From positions 44,330,001 to 44,394,000 of the forward strand of contig OZ024752.1 of the NCBI GenBank assembly GCA_964016885.1: a DNA stretch of 64,000 nucleotides, read 5' to 3'. Below, piece after piece: positions 45,342 through 49,177 of the stretch. A model generated the notes under the pieces. The model ran no database searches. It saw only the letters and a list, made by a program, of their open reading frames with translations, and was not told the origin of the DNA. Source of the stretch: Eledone cirrhosa. Lineage: Eukaryota. Made by a program: the position numbers and the translations under genes. Positions within the stretch are counted from its first letter, which is position 1; every line of letters begins with the position of its first letter.

Positions 45342-45412
<71 letters not shown>

Positions 45413-45543
45413 GTGAGGTTTTTTTTACAAAATGAAAAATAACCGAGGTGTCCTACACGAGTGAAAGTATAAAGAAAAAGAGATGAAATCGAAAATGCAA
45501 CTGGAGTCTTATTTTTTTTAAAAATATATATATTTATTTGGTT

Positions 45544-45581
45544 CCTTTACTGGTTTCGCAGTTCTTCTGCTTTTCAAAAGG
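45544..45581 (-). ncRNA. Minimal hammerhead motif (U3-A8 variant), sense copy of element D
   Basis: The minus strand reads CCUU UUGAAAA GCAG-aagaa-CUGC GAAA C-ca-G UA AAGG, followed by aaccAAATAAA. Confidence 0.6.
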
Positions 45582-45653
45582 TGAGTTGAGATGGAGGGTC
45601 TGTGGTTTTTTTCACATCTGTGAGAAAAACCACAGACCCTCCATCTCAACTCA

Positions 45654-45691
45654 CCTTTTGAAAAGCAGAAGAACTGCGAAACCAGTAAAGG
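45654..45691 (+). ncRNA. Minimal hammerhead motif (U3-A8 variant), inverted copy of element D
   Basis: cctt ttgaaaa gcag aagaa ctgc gaaa ccag ta aagg, with AATAAA at 45697-45702. Confidence 0.6.
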
Positions 45692-45767
45692 AACCAAATA
45701 AATATATATATTTAAAAAAAAAATAAGACTCCAGTTGCATTTTCGATTTCATTTCTTCTTCTTTATT

Positions 45768-45823
<56 letters not shown>

Positions 45824-46293
45824 ATATACAGTTATGTGTGTGTGTATCTATGTGTTTGTGAGTGTATCTGCATCCATAAAGCAGTGTTTTATACCACCCT
45901 GCCGTGGGGCTTCACTACCAAATAAGGTGTGGGTTCCCTTACATTTCAAATATTGCCCCCCCCCCCCCCCCCCCCCAACTTCAAGATGTAGGTTTCGCAG
46001 AATTAGAATACTTTGAGTTCTTTTCTCTGCTCTCAGAATGTTCTTCTCGTAGTCTACCAACCTAGAGACATTATCCTTGGGGTTTTAGTCTACCAACCTT
46101 GATAGGTTATGCTCGGGGTTTTATACAAATATTAAAGTGAATAGTCAACAATTAGTCAAAATCTGAATTTACTAAACTGAAACATTTCACAGAAAGAAGA
46201 GAACACAAATGAGAACCAAATACAACTTTAGTATGTTAGAAATTTATTTACAATACTTTAGTTACTAATATATTCACTTTATATACATAATGG

Positions 46294-47295
46294 TCACACT
46301 GATTGTATGTGTGAGTGTGGAACGGAGCCAACAGTTTGTGAACTTGTTGGTAACTGTCCCTTTCTACGTTGGTACTGAACTCCAGTGAACTCATGATGTG
46401 CCTCAGCAAGGTCTTTAAAACACTGGTATTTCACAGCACCATCAACAAGTTCTGCAACATAAGGAAAGTTCTGGAAAGCTCTGTTCTTTAACAGGTGGTA
46501 TAAAACTCGTCTATTTAGCATTGGATATCGAATATTGGCTAAAATGTCCTGAATTTTCGATTTGTCTTGAAGTTTATTGTCTTTCATCCATCCAGTGGCA
46601 GCACTGAGGATGCAGTCCTCGTCTGCATTTATATCATCACTCTGGATCAAGTCCCGAACCATTTCCCATGAACACGAAGACCAAAGCTTACTGCATGACA
46701 ACTGAGTAAAACATACACATAAAACCTGGAATGCTTGGGATCGGATTTGAGCTGGCATAATGTTAGATTCATATAAACTACTGACTATTTCAATACTGAA
46801 GCTGGCTGTGCCATATCCATATTGTATAGTCTTTTCAAGAATCTGCATTATATAATTTTCACAGTGGCTTATAAGAGGCCATACAGAATACTCGACAGCC
46901 AGCCGATATAATGGTACTACATATTCCCGGTGTAACCACACTGCTCCACTATAGAGAAAATATAGAAATCGGCTGAAAATTTGAACACAGTCTGCATCAA
47001 CATGCAGTTTAAGTATTAGGCGAGGGCCGTCATCTACTGCTGTAAGTTGGTTTAATAGCCGAGTAAAAACCTCACTTTTCATGCCAAGGATCATTTTGTG
47101 AGCATTGAAGGTAAGTTCCCCTTCGTTGATATTAAGCAACACATCACTGAGGGCTTCACTATCAAACAACGACTCAAAAGATTGAGTTGTTTTACACTTG
47201 CGAGTACTATCGCCATCTTCATTGACATCAAGTACACCAGCAGATGGAGGTTTGGTGGGATCAGGATACTCCACTTGAGCACTGTATCTTCTCAT
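46294..47295 (-). CDS. BTB/POZ + BACK domain protein (BTBD17-like architecture), 333 aa, single coding exon
   Basis: BTB hallmarks SDVLLNI...FNAHKMILGMKSEVF...IFSRFLYFLYSG. BACK hallmarks LIQSDDINADEDCILSAATGW...ILANIRYPML. ATG context accATG with an in-frame TAG four codons upstream. Acceptor ttttcag| precedes exon start 47370, and minus-strand AATAAA lies at 46243-46248. Confidence 0.93.
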   Translation of the reverse strand: MRRYSAQVEYPDPTKPPSAGVLDVNEDGDSTRKCKTTQSFESLFDSEALSDVLLNINEGELTFNAHKMILGMKSEVFTRLLNQLTAVDDGPRLILKLHVDADCVQIFSRFLYFLYSGAVWLHREYVVPLYRLAVEYSVWPLISHCENYIMQILEKTIQYGYGTASFSIEIVSSLYESNIMPAQIRSQAFQVLCVCFTQLSCSKLWSSCSWEMVRDLIQSDDINADEDCILSAATGWMKDNKLQDKSKIQDILANIRYPMLNRRVLYHLLKNRAFQNFPYVAELVDGAVKYQCFKDLAEAHHEFTGVQYQRRKGQLPTSSQTVGSVPHSHIQSV

Positions 47296-49177
47296 GGTCT
47301 GCCGCTAGTCTCTCCACCATTGTATTCCACTTGAGGGTTTAGGTCATTGTTGGCCCACCACTTTACACAACTGAAAATTTAATTAGAAAAAGAAAAGAAA
47401 AACATCTTTGTAATTAAACAGAAACACATTTGTTTCAAATAGATACAATTAAAGATCCTGTATAAAAACGACCTAAGTTTCATAAGATTTAGAATTTTAG
47501 TCTTCAATTCATAAAAAACAGTTTTACATGAAAACTGTTTTATAAAAGTTATAATTAATTAATTTGTTAATTCTTTCAACCCGTCTTTACAATAATTATT
47601 TAATTTATTCAACGTTTTTATTTAGAAAAGTGAACTGTCTCACCAACTGAAATAGATATTAACAAATAATAAGATTGTTATATTTCTTTCTTAAAAGAAG
47701 TTTTCAGTAATGTTATCACATGCCCTGCTCTGTAGATCGTTAAATTTCATGAAAGTCAATTTCAGAATAAAAGCCATTAACATAACACCAATAAAAACTA
47801 TTATTGTAAGTGGTCCTCCTGTAAGGTGTTACAACCAACTCACACAATTCTGATGTGGACTTCTTCTTCTTCTTCTTCCTCTCGTCCAACCATAAATTCT
47901 TTATCAACAATTAAGAAGCAGTTTTTATTTAAGACCCCCCCCCCCTCTATATATTAACATCTCAGTTGGAAGTATGATAAACATACATATTATTATTATT
48001 ATTATTATTCCCTCAGGTAGGCCTCACACCTACAGAAATAGCCAGGTGTCATACAATATGGTTATATGAAATACCTTATGCAACATTAACTACATAATAA
48101 CAGGTGTATTTACCTAGTTACCTCGTATAGATATAGGTGTAGTTATTAGAATAATATACCTTAACACACACACACCTTAACACACAAACACACACACCCC
48201 TTAACAGAGGCACACACACCTTAACACACACACACCTTAACAGACAGACACACACACACCTTAACAGTAGCACACAGACACACACCTTAACAGAAGCACA
48301 CACACACACACACCTTAACAGAGAAAGACACACACACACACCTTAACAGAAGCACACAGACACACACACCTTAACAGAGACACACACACACATATATGGA
48401 TATTATCAACTCTAATATTACATAATATCTGCTATAGAAACCTCCCATGTAAAGTATATTTAACATTTAAATATTGCGGAAAATTAGACTAAAATTTAAA
48501 TTGAATTTTTCGTTTATAATTCTATAAGTAAAATAATTTTATTGCTTATATATTTAACATTAAATATATATATATATAATAGAAGGAAAAAAATATAATA
48601 TAAATAATATAATATAATATAATATATATATATATAGAATATATAATATCAAATATATAATATAATATCAAATATATAATATAATATATAAAATATATAT
48701 AATATAATATAATATATAAAATAAATATATAATATAAAATATAATATTGAGATTATTTGGGGGTGATTATCAAACACATTTCTTACTGAATGTAAACATT
48801 GTGTGTTTTGTTTTTAGTAAATGAAGTTTATTAATATAACAGCCAGAACACCTAGGCTGTATTTCTCCTCCTATCTCTTTATATCAGCAGTTGGAAGTTG
48901 TCATGGCAACTGTACTAAATTTAAAGGAAATAAATGTGAATATATTTCAGTATTGGAAATGTTGTGAGTGTGGAAACTGTTATAAAAGAAATGTCCCAGA
49001 TATAGATAATGGCATGTTTAAAACAAATAGAAACATGGACAGTTATTCAATTATCTCAACAATAATGTGTAAATCTTTTAAGTGGGTGAAATATACACAT
49101 ATATATGTATACACACACACATATATATATATATGTGCATGTATATATATTTATAATGACAATAGGAAAGACATTAC

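Follow-up and report, generated by a model that had tools for sequence, protein, structure and literature searches.

The window, that is, the whole stretch of 64,000 nucleotides of Eledone cirrhosa DNA analysed here, carries a hairpin whose two arms (45469-45616 and 45619-45766) are each 148 nt long, 97% complementary and separated by a 2-nt spacer, with differences at 5/148 positions. The left arm extends ~62 nt beyond the right arm (45467-45406) and then passes into (TA)n; the outer ends of the hairpin are unequal and its flanks are unique. The (TA)n target covers 45348..45405 on the left side and 45768..45787 on the right side, where it is followed by (GA)n. Each arm contains the motif CCUU-UUGAAAA-GCAG(AAGAA)CUGC-GAAA-CCAGU-A-AAGG with an AATAAA 5 nt downstream, in line with the earlier note, which had placed this hexamer within 6 nt of the motif. 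In the right, shorter arm this minimal type I hammerhead-like motif lies at 45654..45691 on the forward strand, with U3 at 45658, A8 at 45663, A17 at 45687 and the predicted cut between 45687 and 45688, and its stem III reads ACCAGU where the family has ACCGGU. In the left, longer arm the motif lies at 45544..45581 on the reverse strand, with U3 at 45577 and A8 at 45572. Throughout, window position 45619 is taken as +1 of the element, by which U3 becomes position 40, A8 position 45 and A17 position 69, and the predicted cut falls between 69 and 70. We have found the junction pattern of the window at no fewer than 1,565 loci genome-wide (control 0), which, together with the complementarity of the arms, shows that the 148-bp hairpin with two mirrored motifs described in the earlier note is real.

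Besides the two arms, the window contains no further copy of the family and no RT piece. An Rfam scan of the hairpin matched no hammerhead family. Hits to miRNA precursors reached at best 60.5 bits against a gathering threshold of 90, and we have rejected them as generic hairpin matches. In the neighbourhood there is a single-exon-like BTB-BACK ORF of 336 codons (46294-47304, reverse strand; BTB E=2e-14, BACK E=6e-12). It ends ~530 nt short of the hairpin, and given an AATAAA at 46248 in between, the hairpin probably lies beyond the poly(A) site of this ORF. A 36-nt unit is present in two copies directly downstream of the ORF (46050-46123).

The arms belong to a very large family. The 35-nt hammerhead core has 6,205 exact copies in the 3.0-Gb genome (0 for the reversed pattern used as control), and a 31-mer downstream of the core has 8,779. 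We have sampled the flanks of the first 100 core sites and of 98 of the first 100 31-mer sites, all of them from the initial 54 Mb of contig C1 and biased to young copies; this yielded 128 merged stretches with 230 matches, of which 225 reach at least 80% identity. One natural full-length copy (L065) has a unit of 4,915 nt, composed of 5' pLTR, ORF1, RT frame, 3' UTR and 3' pLTR. That is, direct pLTRs flank its coding region, as is characteristic of Penelope-like elements (PLEs). ORF1 comprises ~320 aa when counted from the ATG at position 239. In another copy (L066) the RT frame is intact and matches RVT_1 (E=5e-7) and GIY-YIG (E=7.6e-5), both above the Pfam cut-off, and a C-x4-C-x2-C linker stands ahead of the GIY-YIG motif in L031, L066 and L067. 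According to the available part of PMC8557442, a CX2-5CxxC linker between RT and EN is the mark of Neptune and Nematis PLEs. The tail extension, the inverted 5'-truncated copies and the (TA)n target, all of them PLE features, are present as well, and the best named relative is an Octopus bimaculoides protein (74% identical). Judged by these sequence features, the family (F1) is an EN+ PLE of the Neptune/Nematis type, the linker being common to both clades.

With 97-99% identity, the arms of the window hairpin match the L065 pLTR, in agreement with the link to Penelope-like pLTRs drawn in the earlier note. The long arm (45400..45620, reverse strand) is a pLTR copy that runs from element position -3/-2, the inferred 5' end of the RNA, to a distal 3' site (211 plus a TATATA shared with the target), with 98.6% identity to the 5' pLTR of L065. 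The short arm (45619..45767, forward strand) runs from +1/+2 to a proximal 3' site (149) with 97.3% identity. Their head-to-head junction (45617..45620) lies at the inferred start site and shows 1-2 nt of microhomology. The sequence between both 3' end sites, which we call the tail, is found in the long arm only (45406..45467, reverse strand); in the full element it is placed shortly before the ATG of ORF1.

For comparison we have used a sister family (F2) with an RT of ~55% identity and a tail of ~41 nt. The AATAAA of the short arm, at 45697..45702 on the forward strand, and its mirror copy in the long arm, at 45533-45538 on the reverse strand, are probably no poly(A) signals, since the hexamer lies ~80 nt past the inferred start and upstream of ORF1, and is absent from this place in F2. 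L065 has a GT at +2 and an AG near +166, which might delimit a 5' intron; the GT is not kept in F2. At the overlap of ORF1 and RT (-1), a U-UUU-UUA slippery heptamer occurs in L065 and L067 (F1) as well as in L331 and L334 (F2), which suggests programmed frameshifting. The tails of F1, F2, F4 and F6 (e.g., 45440-45460) show, by eye, a short GUGU..CAC motif between the end sites; it forms a full hairpin in F1 and F2 and resembles the AC-rich stem-loop at the start sites of the anole element.

The 3' ends of the family fall mostly at two sites. Of the 225 sampled copies, 124 end at ~217 (long), 86 at ~149 (short) and 15 elsewhere. The element has a TA motif at each of the two sites, and among the 210 copies ending there, 188 continue into TA repeats. 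A longer internal TA run (85-92) is the end point of only 2/225 copies, which indicates that the start is set by more than homology. In short-read contigs obtained in four runs of three studies, with run X1 possibly being the assembly's own sample, (TA)n loose ends occur at both 3' sites.

The two kinds of ends are coupled in a nearly strict way. Head-to-head pairing is found for 157 of the 225 copies, and the other 68 (49 long, 13 short, 6 other) stand alone within the flank retrieved. From 80 adjacent divergent pairs we have dropped 10 with an end at neither site. Among the 70 classifiable pairs, 68 consist of one long and one short arm, with one long-long and one short-short pair, while 48% mixed pairs would be expected (p=2e-19). 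F2 follows the same rule in 15/16 pairs, counted by eye. In addition, partner arms tend to share the subfamily: they agree in 44/45 pairs at site 35/36, in 61/62 at site 113 and in 35/42 at site 136, while the shuffled-pair means are 28.9, 32.4 and 13.7, respectively.

These numbers bear on the idea that the two arms entered the same (TA)n independently, or were brought together there by later rearrangement. The idea has some background, as PLEs tend to land beside earlier copies (as stated in the available part of the review PMC6765202), and the one long-long pair, whose members are 3.3 kb apart, is probably such a case. As a general account, however, it predicts ~48% mixed pairs with random haplotypes instead of the observed 68/70 and of the agreement at sites 35/36 and 113, and the arms meet flush at the junctions, leaving no target DNA in between. 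For flush pairs it is refuted, and overall we regard it as extremely improbable.

Long near-perfect palindromes are also a known type of chimera, and hence one may ask whether sequencing or assembly has produced these hairpins as fold-back artefacts, or whether they represent a MITE-like DNA transposon. Against an artefact, the arms of the window hairpin differ at 5 sites, the outer ends are unequal but fixed, and the flanks are unique; moreover, an opposite-strand joint appears in short-read run X1, and a loose end at an inverted junction appears in X4, a run of another study. A MITE or foldback DNA transposon has been rejected, as the outer ends are unequal and the arms are pLTR pieces of an RT-coding element. 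We find this reading scarcely conceivable. As a separate observation, a ~9.6-kb tandem segmental duplication (L250-L254, G000:C1:348.86-348.91 Mb) carries the same hairpin insertion in each unit.

The 5' ends of the copies also show a preferred point. Of 225 copies, 84 begin at -3..+1 and 23 more at +2..+9. This cluster lies 30 nt downstream of a TATA-like box, on an initiator-like CAGAT, which is kept in F2, where 12/69 copies begin within 5 nt of the CAGAT point. From the motif spacing, we infer that the -3..+1 point may be the transcription start and hence the RNA 5' end. The junctions between arms are equally stereotyped: by hand count, 40 of the first 50 junction loci fall into four types (18, 10, 6 and 6), the window representing the second (10), and each type could result from two cDNA 3' ends that pair over 1-2 nt. 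Beside unrelated repeats, further short palindromic junctions are seen in the flanks of L028, L030, L012 and L318; they are probably inverted insertions of other PLE families.

Overall, we consider it likely that the hairpin is one insertion of two truncated pLTRs, placed head-to-head in (TA)n, which would have come from two target-primed cDNAs joined at their tips. The mechanism, which is read from finished insertions, would be as follows. The endonuclease would nick both strands of the (TA)n target, and each nicked 3' end would prime a cDNA, one at site 149 and the other at site 217, both 3' sites thus being start sites of reverse transcription. The template could be one RNA, on which the second cDNA displaces the first, or two RNAs from one source. 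Both cDNAs would halt at the RNA 5' end or earlier, and their tips would pair over 1-2 nt, after which each cDNA would be copied on the other to supply the second strand. A short RNA begun in the pLTR would give a 150-bp hairpin, longer RNAs would give inverted repeats up to ~4 kb apart, and the hammerhead-like motif would be duplicated passively. In vitro, the anole element uses two start sites and both strands are extended (available text of PMC11167929), which is a precedent for this course. Against it, the strands in that system did not differ in their start site and the start was free of homology, whereas both putative start sites of our family carry TA microhomology with the target; in addition, outcomes other than pairs are common, as is seen from the 68/225 copies that stand without a partner.

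Another way to obtain one long and one short arm is a single cDNA. A cDNA begun at the long site could reach the RNA 5' end, fold back, copy itself and anneal at the internal TA, or an antisense RNA could prime itself, as has been proposed for the rotifer Penelope (in the available part of PMC3846280). Such a course explains the unequal arms, their common haplotype and the palindromic junctions, and both window arms carry the same rare change in stem III. The 5' reach of the arms is, however, informative. In the 68 mixed pairs, the two arms extend equally far in 37, and the long arm reaches >10 nt further in 14, both in keeping with a single cDNA, but the short arm reaches >10 nt further in 17, that is, it holds upstream sequence missing from the long arm. 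Since a fold-back cDNA must start as the long arm, it cannot make those 17 pairs and is excluded as the general route. It also leaves aside the 13 solo copies that end exactly at the short site.

A further point against the single cDNA comes from a run of T followed by a run of A at 93-105 (window 45711-45723 and its mirror). The boundary between the runs varies from T3A10 to T10A3 at a total of ~13 (exactly 13 in 97/178). The variation is independent between partner arms and is visible in short-read contigs too, and the run is possibly a hot spot of RT misalignment. Partner arms agree at this boundary in 5/46 pairs, with 3.9 for shuffled pairs; the arms thus differ here as often as random pairs do. 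This discordance could postdate the insertion, but five tandem duplicates, which retain the same boundary, weigh against such an origin. Taken together, a single fold-back or self-primed strand is unlikely as the source of the hairpin, and two target-primed cDNAs remain our preferred reading.

If this reading is extended to PLEs at large, they may rely on obligate twin priming, in which an RT-EN dimer would use one start site per strand and the two cDNAs would be mutual templates for the second strand, while the hammerhead fold of the pLTR in this lineage would be kept, in a non-catalytic or protein-switched role, as its core drifts through changes such as U3-A8 with A17, A13C, and an inserted base beside position 3 with a series of C-G, U-G and U-A. 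We put this forward tentatively, at somewhat less than an even chance. If true, obligate twin priming would account in a single model for the tail, for the inverted pLTRs and for the missing second-strand primer. A literature search, with subscription papers mostly outside its scope, has returned neither an earlier twin-priming model for PLEs nor an account of this family.

As to the motif itself, U3-A8 is fixed in the family: 16 copies have a base other than U at position 3 (all of them with A8), and 10 have a base other than A at position 8. The covariation of U3-A8 with C3-G8, which the earlier note had raised for the family consensus, was looked for and not found, as no copy of the family combines C3 with G8. 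On the other point, that CUGA-based descriptors miss this core, the same note has been borne out on a large scale. With an ACCGGU stem III, the genome contains 32,610 U3-A8 motifs (control 32), as compared with 230 C3-R8 (37) and 160 Y3-G8 motifs (20), and the C3-R8 and Y3-G8 motifs among the matches listed mostly resemble point mutants of U3-A8 families.

The derivation of stem III from the palindrome ACCGGU, and with it the need for a dimer, has likewise been confirmed. ACCGGU is present in 190/196 sampled copies and ACCAGU in 6/196, so that the family has the palindromic stem III and both window arms, with ACCAGU, lack it. Stem I measures 3-4 bp; an older subfamily (61/189 copies, 92.8% mean identity) is without the fourth pair. 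Stems I and II covary across sister families, as would be expected for a conserved structure: 85.5% of cells are paired and 9 pairs show changes on both sides, while slid controls give 35-41%. The alignment behind these figures comprises 10 natural copies, picked by hand in five families; six candidate rows, mostly with shorter stems, have been left out. Six of the kept rows come from searches requiring C3 or G8, by which the 3-8 column is biased. The hammerhead-like fold is conserved in these alignments, and the 3-8 pair is plausibly kept.

Two sister families deserve a description. F2 (L331, L333, L334) is abundant and young, makes up about 1/3 of the first 100 U3-A8 matches, and combines A13C with a 3-bp stem I of U-A pairs only and a compensated stem II; A13C occurs in 45 of 273 collected U3-A8 motifs and is borne by F2. 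F6 (L354-L374, L315-L317) is older; read by eye, its stem I is extended, with a bulge that separates 3 bp from 5 bp. A purine stands between U4 and what looks like position 3, and two 3' ends are present here too. F6 has been rejected as a C3-G8 sister, as an unselected search shows mostly A/G at position 3 and the pair holds only in a shifted register. In that register, the base one upstream of position 3 and position 8 give C-G 32, U-G 31, U-A 32, C-A 2 and other 3, counted by hand in the first 100 of 121 matches from only about four subfamilies and with a one-base insert needed (Fisher p=4e-6). Near 21 F6 loci we have found no RT or ORF, and no autonomous partner could be linked to the family.

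The conserved fold raises the question whether the mirrored U3-A8 motifs of the window act as ribozymes and whether the hairpin functions as a self-cleaving or regulatory RNA. Besides the covariation of stems I and II, 5' ends just before the cut exceed those of a control window ~1.5-fold after normalisation (~298 vs 203; raw counts 196 and 151), which would fit with cleavage. Genome-wide, there is however no sharp peak of 5' ends at the cut site, 5' ends at 66-74 make up 7/225 in the sample, and among 30 near-cut loci inspected many are microhomology junctions, small duplications or deletions. Whichever strand of the window hairpin is transcribed, one of its two arms will be in antisense orientation, and the hairpin is predicted to reach ~-240 kcal/mol and to outcompete the motif at ~-5 to -6.5. 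The mirrored motifs, which the earlier note had taken for two hammerheads, thus probably do not form a functional pair, as the hairpin would bury them. In addition, an ACCAGU duplex is predicted at +1.4 kcal/mol, as compared with -8.3 for ACCGGU.

The core points in the same direction. The NUH rule has its basis in a position 17 unable to pair with position 3; here 268/273 collected U3-A8 motifs have A17, and U3-A17 pairing is predicted to be favoured by 1.7 kcal/mol, with a pairing probability of 0.47 and with presence in the predicted dimer. By analogy, we infer that the U3-A17 pair, which the earlier note had overlooked, may correspond to the inhibitory C3-G17 pair. The sister family F2 carries A13C, and this is a damaging change of the hammerhead core. 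C3-G17 is presumed to impair minimal hammerheads, while tertiary-stabilised ones tolerate it (PMC3884650). Minimal PLE hammerheads cleave poorly in vitro (available text of PMC4209133), and cleavage is dispensable for insertion (available text of PMC11167929). An active ribozyme at this locus is therefore very unlikely in our estimate. For the family as a whole, the motif is predicted to be a weak ribozyme at best, dependent on a dimer or a protein, and both copies in the window are probably inactive. Lunse et al. are said to have reported in 2017 that small PLE hammerhead variants cleave as dimers, and that work may already cover the U3-A8/A17 variant.

The recognition of U3-A8 in a PLE hammerhead is correct but already published, and what the present analysis adds is the scale and the regularity of the arms. 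The near-strict rule of one long and one short arm, seen in two families, is a sharp prediction for the existing in vitro PLE system. The arm asymmetry also provides a testable clue to PLE integration; the way in which PLEs come by their tandem and inverted structures and their tails is named as an open matter in the available part of PMC8557442. In addition, the core variants of the hammerhead seen in mobile families of this genome form a natural series that is relevant to the importance of cleavage, and its near-perfect hairpins of ~150 bp, at least 1,565 in number, could form double-stranded RNA if transcribed.

We have finally compared the locus with known systems, using the available parts of the texts cited. 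In mammalian L1 twin priming, reportedly described by Ostertag and Kazazian in 2001, both target ends are said to prime, and joining by microhomology to result in an inversion. The cDNAs of L1 cover different parts of the RNA, whereas here they would cover the same part, which gives a palindrome.

Among hammerhead-bearing elements, U3-A8 cores and opposite-strand motif pairs in PLEs were published in 2014 by Cervera and de la Pena (PMC4209133), whose available text gives ~1,300 U3-A8 hits for Schistosoma mansoni, with opposite-strand pairs 100-700 bp apart and low activity. Our family shares with these Cercyon-type PLE hammerheads the position in the pLTR, the short stem I, the palindromic stem III, the U3-A8 core and the opposite-strand pairs. 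As far as that text goes, it differs in the dominance of U3-A8 in several families, in a shorter stem II (4-6 bp, as compared with 7-8), in an A17 capable of pairing with U3 and in the A13C found in a sister family. Non-LTR retrozymes, as described in the available part of bioRxiv 10.64898/2026.07.22.740005, are likewise non-coding and pLTR-related with a type I hammerhead; they are, however, head-to-tail tandem arrays, and the head-to-head pair from an autonomous family found here stands outside that class.

Within PLEs, the Adineta vaga Penelope shows head-to-head pLTRs, palindromic junctions and a tail on one arm (available part of PMC3846280), and in the available part of PMC8557442 a tail is often seen at one of the ends, while the way in which tandem and inverted structures arise is given as open. 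The head-to-head pLTRs, the palindrome, the one-arm tail and the microsatellite target are thus common to the Adineta vaga element, the Naiad/PLE scheme and our family. In the accessible portions of these two sources, the tail is optional and 30-40 bp long, and antisense self-priming or EN-mediated resolution is proposed; in the family described here, by comparison, the tail measures ~62-68 nt and is near-obligatory on exactly one arm, and the junction is fixed at the inferred start. A parallel to the two 3' end sites is provided by the in vitro work on Anolis Poseidon PAc (Frangieh et al. 2024, PMC11167929), where, in the available text, two internal RT starts delimit the tail and the target is AT-rich. 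Our family belongs to a different clade (CxxC linker, separate ORF1), and its putative start sites, which share TA microhomology with the target, are located ahead of ORF1. To that system the genomic data presented here add the coupling of one site per strand, which the available text of PMC11167929 does not state.
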